This document shows, one piece after another, positions 2,835-52,702 of a stretch of DNA of 64,000 nt. Both the position numbers and the translations under genes were made by a program. The notes beneath the pieces are model-generated. The model was given only the letters and a program-made list of their open reading frames with translations. It did not search any database and was not told where the DNA came from. Every line of letters begins with the position of its first letter. Position 1 is the first letter of the stretch. Origin of the DNA: a virus (taxonomy: Duplodnaviria > Caudoviricetes); IMG/VR virus record IMGVR_UViG_3300037400_002699, positions 70,274 through 134,273 of that record; one strand, 5' to 3'.

Positions 2835-4871
2835 ATGAAAGAATTTTTATCTAGTGGCGTAGTTGGTAATATTGAGTACAACGCCCAGAAACAGATACGT
2901 GAGAGCATTCAGAACCGTTGGGACCAGCTCGGATTTACTGAGGGTCTTCCAGAGGGTATCAAGGAGAATGTTGCTACGTTGTATGAGAATGAGGCTAAGC
3001 ACTTGATTTATGAGGCTACAGCTTCTGACAATAGCGGTTCATTCGAGACTGTGGTATTCCCTATCATCCGTAGGGTATTCAGCAGACTTCTTGCTAATGA
3101 CATCGTTTCAGTACAGGCTATGAACCTTCCTGTAGGTAAGTTGTTCTTCATCCTCCCTGTTACTTCAGAGAGAGAGTGGGAGCTTCCAGCAGAGATGACT
3201 GGCGACACTGAGCCTGGCGATATTGTAGACGGAACAACTGGTCGTCACCTTGGTCTTATGGGTTATGACAGAGTTAACCGTAACAAGGAAGGACGTGTTG
3301 AGCCACGTTACTATCTCCCAGACGAGACAATCAATGAGCTTCAGAATGCATGGTACATCCCAGTTCTTAGCGACGAGGATACCTATGATACATTCGACGC
3401 TGCTAAGGAAGCTGCTATTGCAGCTGGTCTTAACCCAACAGCTATTCGTAGAGTAGGACCAGAGGTTACTCAGTACTTCCAGAAGAGTCTTTACGACTTG
3501 TTCTACAATGACTTCTTGTATGACAACTCAAAGGGTAAGGTTACTATTAAGGTTGGTGAGGCTATCCCAGTATTCTTGACCCCTGGTGGTGTTCGCCCAT
3601 TCGGTGCTGACAACTTGAATCAGTACTTCCAGAGTGGATTTGACGGAACTATCCGTAACGTCATCCTTGAGATTGATGGTTTCTCTTCATTCAACGCTTC
3701 TAAGTTGACTGGTCCTGACGGAAACGAAATGGACACTGAGGAGTTCCTTGCTTCATTGAAGGTTATCACACAGAAGGCTATTGCAGCTCAGAATGCTCCT
3801 GGTTCAGAGGACGTTAAGACTTCTGCTTTCAGAAAGTTTGAGTCTGTTCCATTCAGAGTAGTTACTCAGAAGTATGGTAAGGGTATCGTAGAGTACGGTG
3901 CTGCTTGCGACGCAGAGGGTAAGATGTATATCGAGCTTGACCTTGCTAAGCCAGTTATCCAGCAGGCTGGAACAATCGATGGTTACATCGGTGTTGCTGC
4001 TTCAGAGCTTGACGCTGCAATTGTTAAGAGTGGAAACACTATTGACTACGAGGCAACTAAGGAGAATATCAAGTCTTTGTTCAAGATTGCTTGGGCACAG
4101 TATGATTCTCTTGAGCTTGAGACTGAAATCGGTGAGGTTTCATTCAAGTTGGATTCAGTAACTGTATCAGTTGTAGAGAGAAAGCTTCGTGCTACCTGGT
4201 CTCCAGAGCTTGCACAGGACGTTTCTGCATTCCACAACATCGACGCAGAGGCTGAGTTGACAGCTATCCTTTCAGAGCAGATTGCTGCTGAGATTGACCG
4301 TGAGATTCTCCGTGACCTTAGAAAGGGAGCGCCTTGGCAGGCACGTTGGGATGTCAATGGTTGGAGGAGAATGGCTGCATTCTCTACAAACTACACCCAG
4401 AAGGACTGGAATCAAGAGTTGATGACTAAGATTAACCAGATTTCTGCACAGATTCACAAGTCTACACTTCGTGGTGGTGCTAACTTCATCGTTGTATCTT
4501 CAGAGATTTCTGCATTGTTCGATAACTTGGAGTTCTTCCACGTATCTGACGCTTCAGCAGAGAGCGACCAGTACAACATGGGTATCGAGAAGATTGGAGC
4601 ACTTAACGGACGTTACACCGTATATCGTGACCCATATTCTCCACACTGGTCAATCATCATTGGTCACAAGGGTAAGTCACTTCTTGACACTGGTTACATC
4701 TATGCACCATATGTGCCAATGCAGTTGACTCCTACAATGTACAACCCATTCAACTTCGCACCCGTAAAGGGGATAATGACGAGGTACGCTAAAAAGATGG
4801 TAAATAATCGTTACTATGGACATGTTCGTGTAGACGGTCTCGTACATTGGAGCATCAACGAATTCAGATAA
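2835..4871 (+). CDS. Major capsid protein (T4 gp23-like) with large internal insertion
   Basis: Motifs PIIRRVF, DIVSVQAM, RKLRATWSPELAQD, DAEAELTAILSEQIAAEIDREI, YAPYVPMQ, GIMTRY; strong codon bias. Confidence 0.97.
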   Translation: MKEFLSSGVVGNIEYNAQKQIRESIQNRWDQLGFTEGLPEGIKENVATLYENEAKHLIYEATASDNSGSFETVVFPIIRRVFSRLLANDIVSVQAMNLPVGKLFFILPVTSEREWELPAEMTGDTEPGDIVDGTTGRHLGLMGYDRVNRNKEGRVEPRYYLPDETINELQNAWYIPVLSDEDTYDTFDAAKEAAIAAGLNPTAIRRVGPEVTQYFQKSLYDLFYNDFLYDNSKGKVTIKVGEAIPVFLTPGGVRPFGADNLNQYFQSGFDGTIRNVILEIDGFSSFNASKLTGPDGNEMDTEEFLASLKVITQKAIAAQNAPGSEDVKTSAFRKFESVPFRVVTQKYGKGIVEYGAACDAEGKMYIELDLAKPVIQQAGTIDGYIGVAASELDAAIVKSGNTIDYEATKENIKSLFKIAWAQYDSLELETEIGEVSFKLDSVTVSVVERKLRATWSPELAQDVSAFHNIDAEAELTAILSEQIAAEIDREILRDLRKGAPWQARWDVNGWRRMAAFSTNYTQKDWNQELMTKINQISAQIHKSTLRGGANFIVVSSEISALFDNLEFFHVSDASAESDQYNMGIEKIGALNGRYTVYRDPYSPHWSIIIGHKGKSLLDTGYIYAPYVPMQLTPTMYNPFNFAPVKGIMTRYAKKMVNNRYYGHVRVDGLVHWSINEFR

Positions 4872-4897
4872 TAAATAACTGAAAATCAATAACTTAC

Positions 4898-4933
4898 AAA
4901 GGTTGCCAAGTCAATAGATTTGGCAACTTTTTT
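4898..4933 (+). terminator. Intrinsic terminator after MCP
   Basis: GTTGCCAA...TTGGCAAC stem followed by T-run. Confidence 0.8.
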
Positions 4934-5093
4934 GTTTTTTAATCCATTTTAACTTGAAAAAATATTATAAGTTAGAATGGATTATTTTTTATATAGGAAT
5001 GAAATTAAATGGATTATTTTGATATTTATATAAAAAAAGTTGGTTTAGAAAGAAACTAATGTTGTTTTTTAGAGATAAAACGTTATATTTTAT

Positions 5094-5480
5094 ATGCAGT
5101 ACTTTTATATTAAACAGGGCAGTACATTGCCAACACTTAGGATGGAGCTTATAGAGGATGGAAGACATGACTTCAACAAGTTCCATGAGTGCATACAGGC
5201 TGCTGACATAACTTTTACAATGACAAATATTGACACCAACGTTGTGAAGGTAGCAAAGAACAAGGCATACATCAAACTACGTGAGAACGATGATTGCACT
5301 GAACAGTATGTGATATGCTATGACTGGAAAGGTCATGATACCAAGGAGGCTGGCAGTTTTAAGGGTGTATTTGAAATAACATTCAGCGGAAATATAAAGA
5401 ATGATTCATATACCTACCCAAATGGCATACTAAACGCACCAATAAGGGAAGAGCTTATGGTCATAGTTCTTCCTAAATAA
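5094..5480 (+). CDS. Hypothetical virion protein, probable Ig-like/BppU-like beta-sandwich
   Basis: FYIKQGSTLP start, alternating beta-strand pattern, ATATTTATA at 5022. Confidence 0.55.
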   Translation: MQYFYIKQGSTLPTLRMELIEDGRHDFNKFHECIQAADITFTMTNIDTNVVKVAKNKAYIKLRENDDCTEQYVICYDWKGHDTKEAGSFKGVFEITFSGNIKNDSYTYPNGILNAPIREELMVIVLPK

Positions 5481-5500
5481 TTTGAATAAATTTTAATGTT

Positions 5501-5749
5501 ATGATTGAACCGAAATTTAATCCAGGTGATTATATTATAAACAGGACATCTGGAGATATGGCGATAGTTGACAAGGTTACTTCGAAGGGGTATTATCGTT
5601 TCAAGGCGTTTTATGGTAGCATGTTTAATGAATTCAAAGATGTGAAGGATAAAAATTTTGATTTGCAGATTAATTATCAGAAGTTTTATGACCTGTGTAA
5701 TGACGGTGAGAAGAAAAAACTCGATGAGTTAATAAAAGAGAAGGGATGA
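5501..5749 (+). CDS. Hypothetical protein
   Basis: 82-aa ORF starting PKFNPGDYI; ATGA overlap with next gene. Confidence 0.7.
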   Translation: MIEPKFNPGDYIINRTSGDMAIVDKVTSKGYYRFKAFYGSMFNEFKDVKDKNFDLQINYQKFYDLCNDGEKKKLDELIKEKG

Positions 5750-6276
5750 AAATAATAAGATTAACAGAGGGTGATTTACATAATATTGTTACAGAGGTTG
5801 TTGCGAACTTATGCGAATCATCAACCAGTGAAGTTGTCTTTCATTGTGGCGATGAACTAAACGAAAGGAGATTCAAGGATGTGATATGGTTTAGTTCTGA
5901 ACCTATTGGTTATTTCGGTTACCCACATAGATATGAGGTGACGATGAACAACCCACTTGTGATAAACGCATTTGGTGCTGGCTGGAATGACAAGTTATGG
6001 CGGGAGTGTTGTAAACCAACTGGTGAGCCAAAATGCCCTCCAGATGACCCAAGTCTTGTATCAAGAGCACCTGCCTTTATATGGAAAATGGTACAAGAGT
6101 CAGATGATGAGATAGAATATGGAGACATACCTTACATAGTTAAGCATATGCGTAATGAGGGTAAGGTAAATTATGATGGGGTTATAATAAAAGAAATTTA
6201 CGAAACGCCAACTTGTAATATTAAGACTGATGACTATGTTGTTTTCAGCATGAAACAAATAAAACTAGTAAAATAA
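5746..6276 (+). CDS. ADP-ribosyltransferase-fold (ART-PolyVal-like) protein with IRLTE leader
   Basis: VVFHCG...IWFS...MNNPLVI...YDGVII...YVVFSMKQIK pattern; N-terminus MKIIRLTEGDLHNIVTE. Confidence 0.55.
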   Translation: MKIIRLTEGDLHNIVTEVVANLCESSTSEVVFHCGDELNERRFKDVIWFSSEPIGYFGYPHRYEVTMNNPLVINAFGAGWNDKLWRECCKPTGEPKCPPDDPSLVSRAPAFIWKMVQESDDEIEYGDIPYIVKHMRNEGKVNYDGVIIKEIYETPTCNIKTDDYVVFSMKQIKLVK

Positions 6277-12971: not shown

Positions 12972-14906
12972 ATGGCTATAATTAACAACAATGTAGAGAA
13001 CGTTAAGTTCTTGAGAAACCAAAATCCTTTTGAGTCACGTGAAGCTGCACGTACCGCTTTGGAGAGCAATAAGGGACAAGCTGCTGATGGTACTGCCTTG
13101 CTTGCTCGTTACACCATAACTGACGGACAGACAACAGACGTTAAGACTCTTGTTGGTTTTGTTGCTGAGGTAAATTCAACAAAGTACGTCACAATATTTG
13201 ACGTTGAAGGTGGAAGTGAGGATGTTAATAATCTTCGTGAAGAGATTAATGCAAAACTTGGTACTACTTTCATTAGCTCAAGCAATACTGTAGAGTCAAA
13301 CCTTACTGCTTTAAGTGGTAATAACAGTTCAACAAGTGCTGAGACCTCTGTTGAAGGTGCTAAGAGATATGCTGATGAATTAAAGAATCAGATGGATTAC
13401 AGTGGTGTAACAACTGGAACTGGTGTTTATGTAACAAACGTAACACAGTCTGATGGTATTGTATCTGCAACAACTGCAACCCTTCCAACCGTAACTGGTG
13501 AGGTTGAGTCTAAGAAGGTTGTAATGAGTGTATCTGAGGACAAGGGAGAAATTGCTGTCACTAAGGGTACTATTGAATCTTCTGATAAGACTGTTGTAAT
13601 AGGTGACTTGGCTGAAGGTAATGGTGTTGACTTCAAGGTTAATATTGATGGTGAGACACTTGTTGCTGATACAAGTACTGGTGTGATTAGTGTCGCTTCT
13701 GCTGCTCTTACACAGTATGTTGGCGATGAAGACACCATACACATTTCTGCTGCTGATGCACAGAACAACAAGACTGTTAGTTCACTCCTTACAATTTCAG
13801 CAACAACTCCAAGTGAAGCTAATGTAAAGGAACAGTATAACCTTGTTGGCGCAAGTGGTAATACAATTGGTGCAACTATTAAAATTTATAAGGACAGTGC
13901 ATTGCTTTCAGTTGCATTGTTACACGCTGATACCACAGCAAACCCACAAGTATTGCCAACATATGACAAGGCAACAAATACTTGGACTGATATTGCAGAC
14001 CCAACAGACGAAAACCAAGCATTGTGCTATGCATATGAGGATGTAAGTGGAAACACTGTTGTTGCAGCAGTCCCAGTTGGTGCATTTATCAATGAGCAAG
14101 AGTTTGCAAGTGGTGTTACTTGGGATGCAACTGCAAATAAGGTTAAGGGTGTTGTTGACTCAACTTCAGAAAAGGATTCACAAGACACTCCAGTTGATTT
14201 CTTGACAGTTGGCGCTGATGGTTTCAAGATTAGTGGAATTAAGGATGAGATTGATAGACAACTTGACGCTGTGGTTGAAGACCTTGATGCAACCGTAACT
14301 GGTGAAACAGCAAACCAACATATCACAATTTCCATTGAAGAACTTGATGGTAAACTTGTTCAGAGTGGCTTGACAATCACTGAAAGCAACATTGCAAACG
14401 CTGATGACCTTGCAGAACTTAGTGGAAAGACAGTAACCGCATTGACGTCTACAAATGGTAGTATTACTGCACAGATAGATGATGCTGCTGGCTGCAAGAC
14501 ATATGACATCGAGACTGATGCTGACAAGATTAAGATGAGTGGTTTCACAAGCACTGACGCACTTAGTGGCATTACAGAGGCTGATTCAATCGCAACAGCG
14601 TTTGAGAAGGTGGATGCAGTTATCACAGAGAATGAGCAAGTTACTTCTGAGGCATTGAACGACCTTAACTCTAGAATCAACACAGTTAGTGGCGAGGTTG
14701 AAACTCTTACAACAGACTCACTCAGTGGAATCACAGTTAATGGTACTGCTGTAGCACCATCAAATCACGTTGCTCCATTGGTAATTGATTCTACTTCTGC
14801 TGCAACTGAATCCAGCGATGGTAAGGCAATTACTGTTCAGACTGATGCAAATGGTAACATTACACTTGGAATTTCCTCAATTGATTGTGGCTACTATAGT
14901 GAGTAA
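12972..14906 (+). CDS. Fibre/virion structural protein, paralog of 28913..30733
   Basis: Shared N-domain (LRN...DG...LARY...TLVGF...TIxDVEG); ends IDCGYYSE. Confidence 0.8.
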   Translation: MAIINNNVENVKFLRNQNPFESREAARTALESNKGQAADGTALLARYTITDGQTTDVKTLVGFVAEVNSTKYVTIFDVEGGSEDVNNLREEINAKLGTTFISSSNTVESNLTALSGNNSSTSAETSVEGAKRYADELKNQMDYSGVTTGTGVYVTNVTQSDGIVSATTATLPTVTGEVESKKVVMSVSEDKGEIAVTKGTIESSDKTVVIGDLAEGNGVDFKVNIDGETLVADTSTGVISVASAALTQYVGDEDTIHISAADAQNNKTVSSLLTISATTPSEANVKEQYNLVGASGNTIGATIKIYKDSALLSVALLHADTTANPQVLPTYDKATNTWTDIADPTDENQALCYAYEDVSGNTVVAAVPVGAFINEQEFASGVTWDATANKVKGVVDSTSEKDSQDTPVDFLTVGADGFKISGIKDEIDRQLDAVVEDLDATVTGETANQHITISIEELDGKLVQSGLTITESNIANADDLAELSGKTVTALTSTNGSITAQIDDAAGCKTYDIETDADKIKMSGFTSTDALSGITEADSIATAFEKVDAVITENEQVTSEALNDLNSRINTVSGEVETLTTDSLSGITVNGTAVAPSNHVAPLVIDSTSAATESSDGKAITVQTDANGNITLGISSIDCGYYSE

Positions 14907-16372
14907 TTACTTATGAATAAAAAAAAGTCTAGATAACCTTTATCTAGACTTTTTTATTTCTTTTAATAGTTTATTTTTATCAACAAATAGATTGTTTTTA
15001 TTATATATTTTATTAAAATACTTTGTATACCCTTTAACATTTGTATAATATAGTATTTTAATACCATTATCAACACACCCATTATATTTGATTACATCTT
15101 TTTCTATTCTGTTAACGTCTTTAAAAAATGGGCTTTTTTCAAAGTGTTGAATTCCTTGGCATTCAATCACAACATTATATTTTGGTAAATAAAAATCAAA
15201 TGGTAAAGGGTTTATATTTTTAACATTATTAAATTTTTTTTGCCTTATATTTTCAATAGTGTTTTCATTTAATAATAGATTAATTTCTTCCTCTAATTTA
15301 CTTTCATTACACAATGGGCAATTACTTTTACTTAGTATGTGGTTTGTTGGCATTTGCCAGAACTCTCCGTGCTTTGGACATATAATACAAACTGGTGTAT
15401 GGTTATTCACATATTCGACCTTTGAATAATCATATTTATCTCCATGTATTTCTTTTGCCTTTTTTATAAATTCTTCTGTGGTTGATTTTTTATTGTTGGA
15501 ACAAATTGGGCATCCACACCCTTGTAAATGGTGGTGATAATACTGTTCAAATTCACCGTGTTTTTTGCAGATTATTTTTATTTTTTTATTTTCTGAGATT
15601 TTATCAATTAAGCTATAATCGTATTCATCTCCATGAATTTTTTTTGCTTTTTCAATAAACTCATCAACGTTTATTTTATCTTTTTTGGCGCATTTTTGGC
15701 ATCCGCAACCTCTTAGATGGTTTTCTGGCATCTGATAGAATTCTCCATGTTCTGGACAAATTATACATACTTTTATTTTAGCTCCTTTATATTCAACTTT
15801 TGAGTAATCATATTTATCTCCATGTATTTTTTTTGCCTTGCTGATAAATTGTTTTGTTTGTTCTTTTATTTTATCCTCATCAATTATTTCTGGGTATTTT
15901 ATTCCTCGTCTACCTAAGAATGGCATACCTGTTTTAGATTTTAAATGAACGAATGGGTATTGCCAAAACTCCCCAGTAGGATTTTCTTCAGTAATTAATT
16001 CTTTGCACATTATGCAAACTTTTTCCCTTCTATTTGTATAAACGGTTTTTGAGTAGTCAAATTTATCACCAAATTTTTCAGTAGCATCTTTTATAAAATT
16101 TTCTGTTGTATAATTACGCCTTTTTCCAATGCATTTTGGACATCCTTGGCCACGTAAATGCGCATATACTACTTGTTCGAACTCACCGTGTATAGGACAT
16201 ATTATTTTCATTTTTTTTAATACTGATATATTACTAAATTTAGGGTAATCATATTTATTACCATGAACAATTTTTGCTCTTTTTACTATTTCATCATATT
16301 TCATATCGTTATGTAATTTCTTATTTATAAATATCTCTTAATAAGAAAAAAATTTTTGATTGTGGTTACTAT
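14881..16372 (-). mobile_element. Endonuclease cassette flanked by a 17-bp direct repeat of the host gene 3' end
   Basis: TTGATTGTGGCTACTAT at 14881-14897 and TTGATTGTGGTTACTAT at 16356-16372; internal terminator ~14920-14956 and promoter motif 16326-16334. Confidence 0.8.
14940..16304 (-). CDS. Free-standing homing-type endonuclease: repeated Cys/His zinc-binding units (DUF723-like) plus C-terminal Vsr/DUF559-like nuclease
   Basis: About five HGxKYDYSK...IICPxHGEF...GCPxC units; FDFYLPKYNVVIECQGIQH. Confidence 0.85.
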   Translation of the reverse strand: MKYDEIVKRAKIVHGNKYDYPKFSNISVLKKMKIICPIHGEFEQVVYAHLRGQGCPKCIGKRRNYTTENFIKDATEKFGDKFDYSKTVYTNRREKVCIMCKELITEENPTGEFWQYPFVHLKSKTGMPFLGRRGIKYPEIIDEDKIKEQTKQFISKAKKIHGDKYDYSKVEYKGAKIKVCIICPEHGEFYQMPENHLRGCGCQKCAKKDKINVDEFIEKAKKIHGDEYDYSLIDKISENKKIKIICKKHGEFEQYYHHHLQGCGCPICSNNKKSTTEEFIKKAKEIHGDKYDYSKVEYVNNHTPVCIICPKHGEFWQMPTNHILSKSNCPLCNESKLEEEINLLLNENTIENIRQKKFNNVKNINPLPFDFYLPKYNVVIECQGIQHFEKSPFFKDVNRIEKDVIKYNGCVDNGIKILYYTNVKGYTKYFNKIYNKNNLFVDKNKLLKEIKKSR

Positions 16373-16510
16373 GATGGTACACAAGGCTAAAAAAAAATAA
16401 TAAATTATAATATACAAAAGATGAGGAATTGTTTGAATACAGTTCCTCATTTTTTATTTCCCTACAAATATTTATTACTATATGATAACTTTAATAATAA
16501 TATAACAATT

Positions 16511-48769: not shown

Positions 48770-49543
48770 TTATTCATTGATAAGATTCCATTTAACATCA
48801 TAGTATTTTTTCTTATATACCCTAATGGCATCCCTTATCTCCTTCGTATTGAGCATGGTGGTCTCCTTAAGGTACAACAAGATGGAACTCTTGTTGAACT
48901 TGTTGCTACCCATCTGTGCAAACAACTCCTCCCAGTTTGTCATAAGCTGGATGAGTGCGAGACCTACCTTCTTCTCATTTGCATTGAGTCTAAGCCTATC
49001 AGCATCGTCAAGAATCTTCCTAATGCTTTCAACCGTGTTTCCAGTCAGTTCTGACATAAAGGTTTTCGCAGTGTCATAGTCATTATAGGAATACCTTATA
49101 TCGTCATTGAAGCCACCCTGGGAACTGTCAAACGGATTGTCGTATGACGTGTTTCTCTTTTGGTTCTTCGTAAACTGGTTAATCTTATAGATGAGATAGT
49201 TCTTGCATATTGTACCACAGTATGAATATGCCTTATAATTGGTGGTAGGGTCAAAGCATGAAAGCTTTGTCATAAGGAATGAAATGGTGTCGTCGAAAGT
49301 CTCCTGGAACTCTTCGTCTGGTGGGTAGAGGTTATATCTTCTGATGATTGATTCTATCATCTTCGTGAAGGCTGGCTTCAAGATGGTATTGAAAATCTGG
49401 TTTCTCTCCCTCTCATTATCACTTGAGATGTAGTCAACTACAGCCTGCTCTTCACGCTCATAGAAGTAGCCTTTTCTTTCCTTGGATGGCTTTCTGCCTC
49501 TCTTTTTCTTAACTTTTTCTTCAGTTGCACAAATTTCTGGCAT
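48770..49543 (-). CDS. Phage sigma factor, T4 gp55-like (late transcription)
   Basis: Sigma region-2-like FQETFDDTISFLMTKLSCFDP...KAYSYCGTICKNYL. Confidence 0.7.
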   Translation of the reverse strand: MPEICATEEKVKKKRGRKPSKERKGYFYEREEQAVVDYISSDNERERNQIFNTILKPAFTKMIESIIRRYNLYPPDEEFQETFDDTISFLMTKLSCFDPTTNYKAYSYCGTICKNYLIYKINQFTKNQKRNTSYDNPFDSSQGGFNDDIRYSYNDYDTAKTFMSELTGNTVESIRKILDDADRLRLNANEKKVGLALIQLMTNWEELFAQMGSNKFNKSSILLYLKETTMLNTKEIRDAIRVYKKKYYDVKWNLINE

Positions 49544-49764
49544 GTCTGGTGATATTTATAATTGTAGAGATTTGCTTTCTCCACTTATTTTATATTACTA
49601 AATATTCCATCAAAGGCAAATCTGTGCAATTCCAACACACTTTCTTTCACATTTTCTCACATAAAAATCTTCGTGTGCCTTTTTGATGTGTAAAAAATGG
49701 CATTAACCATCATGAATTAATGCCATTGAAACTAACAAAATATAAATACAACTATTACTAAATC

Positions 49765-50766
49765 TTACTCCTTAGCTCCTATTTCTGAGTTAGGAGCATA
49801 TTCTTCGTCACTTCCTGGTATCTCTGGCTTATATTCCTTCTTACGGTCTTCCTTTATACGTTCTAAAAGTTCAATGGCTGTTTTGATTGTTTTCTCACCT
49901 AAAAATGAATCATATTTTTCGTGCGTAAAATATAACACTCCAATGTTATGTTCTTCACAAAGTGTTTTTTTATCCTTATCACGTTTTTTTCGGTACGAGA
50001 ATCCTTCAGTGCCACCAAACCACTCTACGTTCCTAAAGTGTTGGCCACCTTGGCATTCTATAGCCAAGCTATAGTCTGGTAAATAAAAGTCAATTCTTTT
50101 AGAGCCAAGCCAGTTAAACATCTTTTCTTGTTCATATTCTATTGAATGACTTTCTAATATGTCTTTCACTTCTTTTTCCAGTTTACTTTGTTTACATATA
50201 GGACATGTATGGCCTCTCAAGAAATTATTTGGACTAACAAAAAATTCTCCGTGTTTTGGACATATAATACATACTTTTGTTTTACTACCAGTATAATTTA
50301 CTCTTGAATAATCGTATTCATTGCCATATATTTCTATAGATTTTTTTACGAAAGAATCTGTATTATACACGATATCATTGCATAATCTACACCCAAACCC
50401 TTGTAAGTGAGAATATGGTCTTTGCCAGAACTCACCGTGTTCTGGACATATGATACATACTTTTGTTCTATTGTTTATATATTTTACTTTAGAATAATCG
50501 TATTTATTTCCGTGAACTTCTCTTGCCCTTTTTATAAATTCATTTTGGCTATCTCTAAAAACGTTTCCCCTAGATATATTAGCACATTTTGGACAATTTT
50601 GACCTTTAAAGTGATTATCTGGTGTTTGCCAAAATTCACCGTGTTCTGGACAAATGATACATACTTTTGTATTTTTGTTAATATATTCTACTTTCGAGTA
50701 GTCATAAATATTCCCGTGAATTTTACGAGCTTTTTCTATAAATTGTTCTTTAGTTAATCGTTTCAT
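49765..50766 (-). CDS. Free-standing homing-type endonuclease (3 DUF723-like zinc units + Vsr/DUF559-like nuclease), fused to a displaced host-gene tail
   Basis: HGNxYDYSKV...VCIICPEHGEFWQ x3; IDFYLPDYSLAIECQGGQH; C-terminal KEDRKKEY... Confidence 0.85.
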   Translation of the reverse strand: MKRLTKEQFIEKARKIHGNIYDYSKVEYINKNTKVCIICPEHGEFWQTPDNHFKGQNCPKCANISRGNVFRDSQNEFIKRAREVHGNKYDYSKVKYINNRTKVCIICPEHGEFWQRPYSHLQGFGCRLCNDIVYNTDSFVKKSIEIYGNEYDYSRVNYTGSKTKVCIICPKHGEFFVSPNNFLRGHTCPICKQSKLEKEVKDILESHSIEYEQEKMFNWLGSKRIDFYLPDYSLAIECQGGQHFRNVEWFGGTEGFSYRKKRDKDKKTLCEEHNIGVLYFTHEKYDSFLGEKTIKTAIELLERIKEDRKKEYKPEIPGSDEEYAPNSEIGAKE

Positions 50767-50822
50767 ATTTCTTTTATTATAAATATTTCAATAAACTAAT
50801 TTTGCAAAGAAAAACGCTATAT

Positions 50823-51620
50823 TTATTCACTATTTTCATTATTTTTTAAGTACTCTTCATATGTTTTATTTCTATCGTCTTTATAATACATTTCACGCTT
50901 AGCCAGGTCGAACCACCACTGGGACTCCTCCTTGCTGACGGTGCTCTTGTATGTGTCTACAAGTGAACCCTTCCTACCAAGTGTGTGGTTATATCCAACC
51001 TTAGGTATGACGAATACCTTCTTACTCTTATTCGTTGCACGAAGCAGCCACTCATACCAGAATGTAATCTTGATGGAAGGTTTTAAACCGCCAACCTCAT
51101 TCCAGTCAGCCTTATTGAATACACTTCCTGTGAGATAGAAGTCGAAGTAGTTCTGCAAACAGTCTGCATCAAGGAAACCAAGCTCATTTGAGAATGCAGA
51201 AGCCCATGCGGCCTCATTACCGAAACCAATATACTTTCCTGTACCGAACTCTGTGATATCCTCAAGACACATAAATACACTAACGTCTGGCATAAAGTCA
51301 ATATATTTCTTTACGTTTGCAAGCCAGATTGGTGTATATGTATCATCAATTTCAAGGATTGAAAACCACTTCACGTCCTCGTTGTTATTAAAAGCTCCTA
51401 CACCGTTATTAACAAGGTCAGCAAACGTTGTACCATCATCCTCTGAGATAACACGTGGCACACTGCTTGGAATGTTCTTAATCTTAGCCTCTGAAGTACC
51501 CTTTGGCACTGAAAGACAGATTGGTGTATCCTTTGGAATTGACTCAATTGCCTTATTAACAAGCTCTATATTTTCCTTACCGAACTCATGCATCGGTATG
51601 ATTATTCCTAGTTCTTTCAT
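50823..51620 (-). CDS. Glycosyltransferase, GT-A fold (GT2-like)
   Basis: GIIIPMH, VNNGV, FSILEIDD, VGGLKP. Confidence 0.7.
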   Translation of the reverse strand: MKELGIIIPMHEFGKENIELVNKAIESIPKDTPICLSVPKGTSEAKIKNIPSSVPRVISEDDGTTFADLVNNGVGAFNNNEDVKWFSILEIDDTYTPIWLANVKKYIDFMPDVSVFMCLEDITEFGTGKYIGFGNEAAWASAFSNELGFLDADCLQNYFDFYLTGSVFNKADWNEVGGLKPSIKITFWYEWLLRATNKSKKVFVIPKVGYNHTLGRKGSLVDTYKSTVSKEESQWWFDLAKREMYYKDDRNKTYEEYLKNNENSE

Positions 51621-52702
51621 TACTTTTCCTCCTGCTTTTTAACTTGTCTTATTAACTCTTCCATTTCAGCCTTTCTCTTATCGAGTACACCGTGAAGATA
51701 TGAAATAAACTCTCTCTCAGTTTCCTCATATGAGAACTTTGAAAGAATCTTCTTACTCTCTTCCTCAAGTACACCAGGTATCTTATCTGTTATCCATGAG
51801 CGAACAACACTTGCAAGCTGCTTGTGAAGTGTGTCATAGTCATTGAACCATACACAACAGTTTGGAAGTTCTTCGCCATCTGCCCAGTCAAGGGATGTGT
51901 TAGGGACTTTTACCATAGTGATACTTCCACTCTTCATTGCCTCAAGTGCGGAATACATAACACTGGCTGAATCGTCAACAACGATGGTGATAGCACCCTC
52001 ACGAAGTGCTGCTGCAAAGTCCTCCTTGGACAGATTTCTAAGTTCCTTGAATGATACCCACTTGAAGTACGGATATTTCCAGTAGAATGGCTTAACAATT
52101 CTTTTGATGTCAGACTGGTCTTTTGCGATAACATTGATTACCATCTTCTTAGGTGTAATGGTATTACCGAATATCTTTGAGATATAAGGATTAACCTTTG
52201 TAAGCTTAACGTAAGGGAAAGCCTCAGTAAGCTCAGCAGCCTGGTAGTTTGAGTTGGTTATACCCTCCATAATGCCGAAGTCGCCCCACTGCGCTGCGTA
52301 TGGCATCTGCTCAACAACGTAGTCATAGTTCTGGAGAATAACGACTCTCTTACATGGAAGATTTTTAGTCTGATTCATAACCTGGGAATAAATCTCTGGA
52401 ATAAACAGCACGTCAGAAGGTGACGTACCAACCTCTCCTTTATTAACATTGTAGTGTGGCAGGTTAGTGTATTCCTCACCAAGCCAAGCACCAACACCTA
52501 CAAATTCCTCCTCAGTGTGGAGCATGCTAACGTCGTATCCGTCTTCCTTTGCTATCAATGCAAGGTTGTAAATATACTCAAGGCTTCCACTTGGTACTCC
52601 CTTTGTATCGATTACGAAGAAGAATACCCTATTTTTCTTCTTGTCTATCTTAGCAATCTCTTTGTTAATGTTCTCGATTACTATCTTGTTCTTATCACTC
52701 AT
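51620..52702 (-). CDS. Glycosyltransferase-like protein, GT-B fold
   Basis: PSGSLEYIY, DVLFIPE, ALEAMKSG. Confidence 0.65.
   Translation of the reverse strand: MSDKNKIVIENINKEIAKIDKKKNRVFFFVIDTKGVPSGSLEYIYNLALIAKEDGYDVSMLHTEEEFVGVGAWLGEEYTNLPHYNVNKGEVGTSPSDVLFIPEIYSQVMNQTKNLPCKRVVILQNYDYVVEQMPYAAQWGDFGIMEGITNSNYQAAELTEAFPYVKLTKVNPYISKIFGNTITPKKMVINVIAKDQSDIKRIVKPFYWKYPYFKWVSFKELRNLSKEDFAAALREGAITIVVDDSASVMYSALEAMKSGSITMVKVPNTSLDWADGEELPNCCVWFNDYDTLHKQLASVVRSWITDKIPGVLEEESKKILSKFSYEETEREFISYLHGVLDKRKAEMEELIRQVKKQEEK

Follow-up and report, generated by a model that had tools for sequence, protein, structure and literature searches.

Introduction

The mORF gene hybrids of fungal mitochondria, known for atp6 of Allomyces macrogynus and for atp6, atp9, cox2, and nad3 of Glomus sp. 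(PMC3630166, citing Paquin et al., 1994), provide the closest described counterpart to the gene cassette analyzed here in a phage genome. We studied a stretch of 64,000 nt (hereinafter, the window) of IMG/VR record IMGVR_UViG_3300037400_002699 (Duplodnaviria; Caudoviricetes; record positions 70,274–134,273), where the cassette carries a nuclease gene into the end of a glycosyltransferase-like (GT-like) gene. Both in the mORF hybrids and in the window, an endonuclease open reading frame (ORF) lies near the 3′ end of a gene, a foreign in-phase C-terminus restores this gene, and the native C-terminus is kept downstream, the native one being closest to that of an element-free relative and the inserted one grouping with another lineage (PMC3630166). 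In Glomus atp6 and nad3, the mORF shares the frame of the inserted end (PMC3630166), whereas the window nuclease is in phase with the displaced native end; a stop codon (50823–50825) and a 56-nt spacer precede its start, so that it is not in phase with the inserted C-terminus. Taken together, the layout of the window locus matches that of the mORF hybrids, the differences being the host, the nuclease family, and the tail that is in phase with the nuclease. Mitochondrial endonuclease ORFs typically encode GIY-YIG or LAGLIDADG enzymes, whereas the window nuclease is Vsr-like with arrays of zinc modules, and its host is a jumbo phage rather than an organelle.

Phages of the T4 type carry free-standing homing endonuclease genes (HEGs), such as those of the Seg and Mob enzymes (e.g., SegF), which cut the nuclease-less allele of a neighboring gene and are copied in with flanking donor sequence (co-conversion). 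In this intronless homing, the occupied allele is protected by differences in the target sequence. As in the window, the nuclease gene lies between or next to conserved genes. To our knowledge, however, the T4-type cases exchange flanks by two homologous crossovers and have no duplicated gene end, whereas the window has one apparently illegitimate junction, with the displaced tail left fused to the nuclease.

Vsr-like (EDxHD) homing endonucleases (Dassa et al., 2009, PMC2677866), among them I-Bth0305I (Taylor et al., 2011, PMC3239194), resemble the window nuclease in being phage-borne and in combining an N-terminal DNA-binding region with a C-terminal catalytic domain of the Vsr fold (Z 9.4–10.8 in the structural comparisons given below). 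They may also be free-standing and bring control elements alongside (PMC2677866), similarly to the promoter-like motif of the window cassette. The published cases, however, lie in introns, split-intein gaps, and fractured genes (PMC2677866; PMC3239194), whereas the window has a duplicated gene end, and their N-terminal regions are of the NUMOD or helix-turn-helix (HTH) type (PMC3239194), whereas those of the window family consist of three to six CapR/DUF723/DUF4379 zinc modules. The T5orf172 HEGs of ICP1 and other phages do carry repeated CapR/DUF723 zinc-finger DNA-binding modules (PMC10448857). They share with the window the zinc arrays of variable number, the location at boundaries of exchange between related phages, and the fact that nearly identical genomes may have or lack them; the window nuclease, however, has a Vsr-like catalytic domain, not T5orf172. 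A term search of that paper yielded no passage on duplication of a host-gene end. A search of a limited literature set for homing endonucleases and duplication in phages yielded no phage paper with the end-duplication layout, only mitochondrial, plastid, or unrelated ones.

Results

Structure of the cassette and the displaced gene end

A cassette of ~1.04 kb occupies window positions 50891 to 49855 on the minus strand, inside the last codons of the GT-like gene. To judge from its sequence and that of its relatives, it is very probably a free-standing HEG that consists of a gene end of another class with its own stop codon, a 56-nt spacer, and a nuclease gene without its own last codons and stop. 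The gene order on the minus strand is a 360-aa gene (51620–52702), the 265-aa GT-like gene (50823–51620), the 333-aa nuclease gene (49765–50766), and a 257-aa gene (48770–49543). The features of the locus are the following.

50823..51620, minus strand: GT-like host gene, 265 aa, GT-A-fold glycosyltransferase-like
50823..50891, minus strand: imported replacement tail, class B, codons 244–265 and stop; left end of the mobile cassette
50767..50822, minus strand: cassette spacer, 56 nt, with the promoter-like motif ATATTTATAA at 50777–50786
49855..50766, minus strand: nuclease body, residues 1–304, with three ~60-aa zinc modules (~1–190) and a Vsr-like catalytic domain (~193–312)
49765..49854, minus strand: displaced native class-A GT tail, in frame as nuclease residues 305–333, with the old GT stop codon
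49690..49727, minus strand: original GT terminator, a 13-bp stem and then a T run, at present used by the nuclease

Seventeen related loci were retrieved with the GT as the query (here and below, loci are denoted by L and a number). Two of them, L001 and L002, have no nuclease, and their GT of 275 aa ends in the same peptide that ends the window nuclease (28 out of 28 aa; 85 out of 90 nt), here contiguous with the gene; their flanks are ~97–99% identical to the window (mostly 93–100% along the DNA). Segment 49765–49854 is, evidently, the original tail of the GT gene, displaced but retained, which uses the original stop codon and terminator and adds to the nuclease 29 in-frame residues, predicted to be disordered. 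The old tail is the same in the window and L098 (90 out of 90 nt), while the window and L003 agree at 80 out of 90 nt, with seven synonymous and two non-synonymous codon differences; thus, the old tail tracks the backbone and not the cassette. The end of the L107 nuclease is the exact end of the native class-A tail in entries P0038 and P0094, which indicates that the old tails match the recipient lineage.

A preliminary description of this DNA, made from the window sequence, had noted the contrast between the two gene ends, and these are as described: the last 22 codons of the GT gene have a GC content of 0.19, and the nuclease runs into 29 codons with a GC content of 0.41. It had also taken 49765–49854 for the original GT tail, which L001 and L002 bear out, and had aligned the two tails along the pattern K-D/E-D-R-N/K-K-x-Y. 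The similarity is real, but not significant alone: its local score of 38 is at about the 94th percentile of the scores of mismatched flank pairs from 79 loci of the nuclease family (median 30, 95th percentile 39, maximum 57). Internal similarity of the tails was therefore rejected as proof, which the orthologs supply instead. The same end on nucleases at unrelated loci, which the preliminary description had considered as possible counter-evidence, was found in none of the 79 homologs, except for the orthologous cassette L018, which shares its contig with L003.

Origin of the present tail

The tails of 120 GT homologs comprise class A (KEDRKKEY type; 52), class B (DRNKTYE type; 22 strict and many near variants), and class C (HP...RD...KF type; 11). 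Contiguous class-A tails are also present in L004–L006, L011, L012, and L016. The present tail of the window GT gene belongs to class B, the closest one being that of P0057. Native class-B tails without the nuclease occur in other, lower-GC lineages (L008–L010, L101, L102/L103, and many P entries). The preliminary description had named nuclease-free orthologs with the present type of tail as a possible objection; class B indeed exists without the nuclease, but not in the window's own backbone.

According to the same description, 50823–50882 was a recoded replacement brought in by the element. The second half of this claim stands, as the tail, spacer, and nuclease move as a block (see below), while the term "recoded" should be abandoned: the present tail is a natural class-B allele imported from another phage lineage, and not a purpose-made recoding. 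Its composition differs sharply from that of the gene core (GC 0.19 and third-position GC 0.17 in the last 22 codons vs. 0.43 and 0.46, respectively). The imported C-terminus is in phase with the host gene and, by the length of the ORF (265 aa vs. 254–275 aa in orthologs), restores the full-length GT product. Tails of the KNDR/KDDR type are followed by the nuclease wherever the downstream DNA is readable, that is, in the window, L003, L098, L100, L107/L108, and L109. Locus L101 has a cassette-like "YHK" tail without the nuclease, a possible case of loss.

Mobility and borders of the cassette

The window and L098, an ENA contig, are 93–100% identical in the flanks and only 66–88% identical at window positions 50891–49920, whereas L098 and L003 are 95–99% identical in the cassette and mostly 74–91% in the flanks. 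The transitions are sharp. The identity of the window to L098 falls from 98–100% to ~72% exactly after codon E243, and that of L099 to L098 rises at the same point from 75% to 100%. The GT core of L099 is 75% identical to those of L098 and L003, its 96 nt of tail and spacer are 99–100% identical to theirs, and the switch occurs exactly after codons AKRE. Hence, one tail-and-spacer allele (99–100% identical) is found in three backbones with GT cores 19–25% apart. Because of these switches, the tail, spacer, and nuclease are seen to move as one block, with the left border between 50892 and 50891. On the right, the window, L098, and L003 have exactly the same junction of nuclease and old tail (between KE and DR).

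Two features expected of homing were observed in these comparisons. The nuclease is present or absent at one exact site, absent from L001 and L002 and present in the window and L098, with the flanks mostly 93–100% identical; and the history of the element is incongruent with that of its flanks (L098 and L003, L099, the window and L098). The cassette spreads horizontally among related ~410-kb phages, and the comparison of the window with L098 indicates that, on one backbone, one allele has replaced another where the site was occupied before. These two backbones are 98–100% identical, and their cassette alleles, only ~75% in protein; one crossover lies in GT codons AKRE, and the other, 65 nt short of the nuclease body's end.

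The nuclease

The nuclease ORF is intact (333 aa), with a GC content of 0.31 in the body and 0.41 in the last 29 codons. Pfam identifies the N-terminal zinc modules (DUF4379, 1.4e-8, plus matches to DUF723 and CapR); a NUMOD/HTH N-terminal region is not seen, three zinc modules being present instead. The protein falls in PHROG 559/681/9084, annotated as endonuclease or homing endonuclease. A phmmer search against PDB sequences gave no match to Vsr or I-Bth0305I at E <= 1, and thus the class of the nuclease had to be established by fold comparison. The structural model has a mean pLDDT (predicted local distance difference test) of 84, with residues 312–333 predicted to be disordered and the displaced-tail part at pLDDT 30–43. 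Residues 193–312 superimpose on Vsr (1cw0; VIA-align Z 10.8, root-mean-square deviation 2.5, 105 aligned), and the catalytic domain superimposes on I-Bth0305I (3r3p; VIA-align Z 9.4, 96 out of 97 aligned); the Foldseek probability for the Vsr-fold domain is 1.0. Residues D226, E237, H243, and D263 are invariant in an alignment of 15 nuclease sequences and are candidates for the E-D-x-H-D catalytic residues.

The nuclease family matches 336 stretches in IMG/VR, often several in one genome. Among the 79 loci, native family members end not more than ~8 residues past the last helix, whereas the window nuclease extends 27 residues beyond it. Tandem nuclease copies are seen in L040/L054 and L062, arranged so that the sequence coding for the C-terminus of one copy immediately precedes the next copy. 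In a phage GenBank collection, distant blastn with the 4.1-kb region matched only the nuclease repeat modules, in unrelated phages, and tblastn with the GT gave no match, the collection having no relative of the window phage.

The host gene and the phage

The GT-like protein has no significant Pfam or PHROG match (Pfam GNT-I is weak and below the threshold). In its AlphaFold model (pLDDT 76), the top Foldseek matches are all GT-A glycosyltransferases (E 6e-8 to 1e-5, probability 1.0, template-modeling score ~0.53), and the invariant D92–D93 provide an acidic motif of the DxD type, as in the GT-A fold. It is thus reasonable to call the host gene "glycosyltransferase-like" by predicted fold. The protein has 1007 homologs, and the last invariant residues are K241-R242-E243.

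The window is the final 64 kb of a 134-kb linear virus record with an estimated completeness of 45%. Related contigs are ~410–426 kb long, which makes this virus a jumbo phage; it encodes a major head protein, a helicase, and glycosyltransferases.

Expression signals

The motif ATATTTATAA occurs nine times in the window, with 0.83 copies expected. It is found 11–21 nt upstream of the start codons of both nuclease genes of the window (the second one is described below), as well as upstream of the major-head gene and other genes. The copies are at 2786, 16325, 35737, 36772, 48749, 50777, and three more positions, most of them 10–50 nt upstream of gene starts. A near-identical motif is present in the spacers of L003, L098, L100, and L107, and a variant in that of L109. 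We regard this motif as a candidate phage promoter element brought along by the cassette.

The terminator hairpin at 49690–49727 folds as RNA at −13.8 kcal/mol (z −3.8; none of 200 shuffles is as stable) and is kept after the GT gene or the nuclease in L001, L003, L013, L017, L100, L101, and L107. A consensus terminator scan missed this conserved hairpin due to the loop rule of the scan, while direct folding shows it.

Other cassettes at the same site and variation of the neighborhood

A second, independent type of cassette is inserted at the same place in other phages. Compared with nuclease-free L102, the GT gene of L007 is 97–100% identical up to codon 241/242, after which the sequence changes to a tail of class C, followed by a nuclease gene (377 aa) that has a stop codon of its own and by ~115 nt of foreign spacer DNA; identity to L102 resumes between D249 and R250, and the class-B remnant left behind is identical to the tail of L102. 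In L017 (IMGVR_UViG_3300032007_000003, 4785–5753), one stretch of DNA, read in two frames, encodes both the end of the class-C tail and the start of the nuclease; lacking its own stop codon, the nuclease terminates within the hairpin of the GT terminator. The two cassette types replace the same ~8 GT codons (borders at codons 241–243 and 249/250). Because the L007 and window types have nearly the same borders, cleavage is predicted in codons ~244–248, and it is within these codons of the empty GT allele that we infer the break to have occurred.

The neighborhood of the GT gene varies in other ways as well. A gene of 193–212 aa lies between the 360-aa gene and the GT gene in L001 (3442–4035), L007, L013, L017, L100, and L102; in the window, L003, L098, L010, and L015, this gene is missing, and its two neighbors adjoin each other directly. 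A shorter nuclease of the same family (241–242 aa) is wedged between the 108–112-aa and 360-aa genes in L011 (2078–2806) and L102 (1090–1815); the GT region is a hot spot for such elements. An ORF of 132–142 aa overlaps the end of class-B GT tails in L010 (4761–5159), L102 (4288–4686), and L007 (6103–6531). This ORF is lengthened in L007 by ~10 codons, because the displaced tail, read in a different frame, forms its start region.

Cassette 1 and other loci of the nuclease family

The window contains a second member of the nuclease family, referred to as cassette 1, with the following features.

14940..16304, minus strand: cassette 1, paralogous nuclease, 454 aa, ~45% identical; inverted relative to the host gene 12972–14906 (plus strand)
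16356..16390, plus strand: probable displaced end of the 644-aa fiber-like gene, beyond cassette 1; a direct repeat of 14881–14897, five codons, and a stop

The direct repeat 14881–14897/16356–16372 (17 nt, 16 matches) brackets the cassette, and beyond it there is an in-frame remnant with a stop and its own hairpin and T run. Cassette 1 thus probably displaced the end of its host gene likewise. The 644-aa gene retains the DCGYY motif and ends in two new codons, and the remnant has five other codons. The same short end motif is present in L097, the sole and distant relative of the 644-aa gene that was found; no nuclease-free ortholog of this gene was found, so that the identification of the remnant relies on the 17-nt repeat and its position.

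Among the 79 loci of the family, seven show copies of a host-gene peptide on either side of the nuclease and outscore every one of the 600 mismatched controls. The tails are duplicated in L059 and L078, and the heads, in L060, L056, L028, L066, and L051; L077 is borderline. The survey misses diverged pairs, such as that of the window itself. In the loci with duplicated heads (~2830–2950/3910–4180), the first ~12–30 codons of the downstream gene persist as a dead remnant upstream of the nuclease, so that the replacement affects the gene head in mirror image; in L028 and L066, the downstream gene is thioredoxin-like. Loci L059 and L104 have the window layout in an unrelated host gene, and the end of this gene in nuclease-free L105 and L106 is closer to the nuclease-fused copy (44 out of 60 nt) than to the current end (39 out of 60). 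The suggestion of the preliminary description that tail replacement is a general mobility strategy of this family is thus borne out by the seven loci with end duplications, by L007, and by L104/L105, with cassette 1 as a probable further case.

Discussion

The borders of the cassettes and the known precedents suggest a mechanism with a cut, one homologous junction, and one illegitimate junction. The nuclease would cut the empty allele within GT codons ~244–248, and the left end of the break would invade a cassette-bearing relative in the conserved upstream codons (WWFDLAKRE), so that the tail, spacer, and nuclease of the donor would be copied. When the element was first established, illegitimate joining would have linked the right end, from the point between KE and DR, with the nuclease gene at its 3′ end, thereby creating both the duplication and the fusion. 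Later rounds of ordinary homing would use the displaced tail and the DNA downstream of it as the right homology arm. An occupied allele would be immune, its target being split and its functional copy being a diverged allele, and the imported tail would make the insertion phenotypically silent, a job done by the intron or intein for other HEGs.

Several considerations weigh against this interpretation. All data come from metagenome assemblies. A search for the donor state, in which this nuclease, complete with a stop of its own, would follow a native class-B tail, was unsuccessful; the contig of P0057 (ENA sample ERZ27256883), the best candidate, is readable only as a tail. The nuclease is a putative homing enzyme, the position of its target being deduced solely from the cassette borders, and the left border could be sharp because functional chimeras were selected or because homology was limited, and need not mark the break. 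The in-frame fusion is expected by chance in one case out of three, and the 7:2 ratio of synonymous to non-synonymous differences between old tails could mean that the extension is under selection. Finally, the junction in L100 and L107 (between IK and EYKK) may be either a separate event or a 15-nt slippage deletion of a window-type junction.

Two alternatives deny that the tail was imported into an empty site. If the cassette were ancestral, genomes of the L001 type would have arisen by precise deletion rejoining the GT core to the downstream tail; a short homologous KEDR-type stretch in both tails could mediate such an event, and the cassette-like tail without a nuclease in L101 could be its product. 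This is, nevertheless, very improbable, given that the two repeats share only 25 out of 36 nt, contiguous class-A tails are the commonest (52 out of 120, plus L004–L006, L011, L012, and L016), the cassette is compositionally foreign, and the same cassette allele is found in backbones 15–25% apart (L003, L098, and L099), as gain by transfer predicts. The homology of the two tails at their starts would also fit a local tandem duplication of the tail with divergence in situ and later insertion of an unrelated nuclease, with no import; yet the new tail is nearest to native class-B tails elsewhere (e.g., P0057, L008, and L010), its GC content of 0.19 fits the spacer and nuclease rather than the host gene, and the tail, spacer, and nuclease are transferred together as a block with a sharp border after AKRE, so that this scenario, too, is hardly credible.

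Other alternatives concern the role of the nuclease and its extension. The nuclease might be a moron with a function in defense, anti-defense, or repair, the block being moved passively by recombination between co-infecting phages. Indeed, phage genomes are mosaic anyway, and the Vsr fold is also found in repair enzymes, the homing role here being predicted from sequence. We nevertheless consider this quite unlikely, because the element is present or absent at one exact site, the two cassette types have nearly identical borders, many paralogs lie next to or inside conserved genes elsewhere, often with duplications of host-gene ends, the structure is close to that of the proven homing enzyme I-Bth0305I, and the CapR/DUF723-like zinc arrays are as in the T5orf172 HEGs of ICP1 (PMC10448857). 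It is also unlikely that the in-frame fusion was selected since the 29-residue former GT tail gives the nuclease some function, such as contact with a partner or control of stability. At least five backbones (the window, L098, L003, L100, and L107) retain the extension, and the old tails of the window and L003 show the synonymous bias mentioned above; however, this bias is expected if the old tail is the formerly selected GT tail of the recipient, as L107 indicates, the extension is predicted to be disordered (pLDDT 30–43), a join in frame arises one time in three by chance, and the sister cassettes have no extension, the L007 nuclease having its own stop and that of L017 running into the terminator hairpin.

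If the cassette is a homing element, as we prefer, the tail classes A, B, and C could largely be footprints of serial invasions, with rival nucleases overwriting each other at one site. HEGs would then diversify the C-terminus of the host protein and act as a cleave-and-rescue drive, in which the rescue copy is the immunity determinant; the tail of each cassette would be immune to its own nuclease and perhaps sensitive to that of a rival. We offer this extension tentatively and consider it rather doubtful. The cases of overwriting are class B over A in the window, class C over B in L007, and the swap of alleles between the window and L098 on one backbone.

For annotation, odd C-terminal extensions of phage nucleases and compositionally odd ends of the adjoining genes are to be read as one event. 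The borders of the duplication mark the probable cleavage site to within ~15 nt by sequence alone, which may provide a general route to the targets of HEGs in metagenomes. The end-duplication layout, documented in fungal mitochondria, recurs across a large family of phage nucleases (seven out of 79 loci), at the heads as well as at the tails of host genes. The cassette would represent a third way, besides the intron and the intein, in which an HEG may enter a coding region harmlessly, namely, by carrying a spare copy of the gene end that it displaces; this proposal rests on empty-site, occupied-site, and transfer evidence from natural genomes, and the cassette would be a natural analog of engineered home-and-rescue gene drives.

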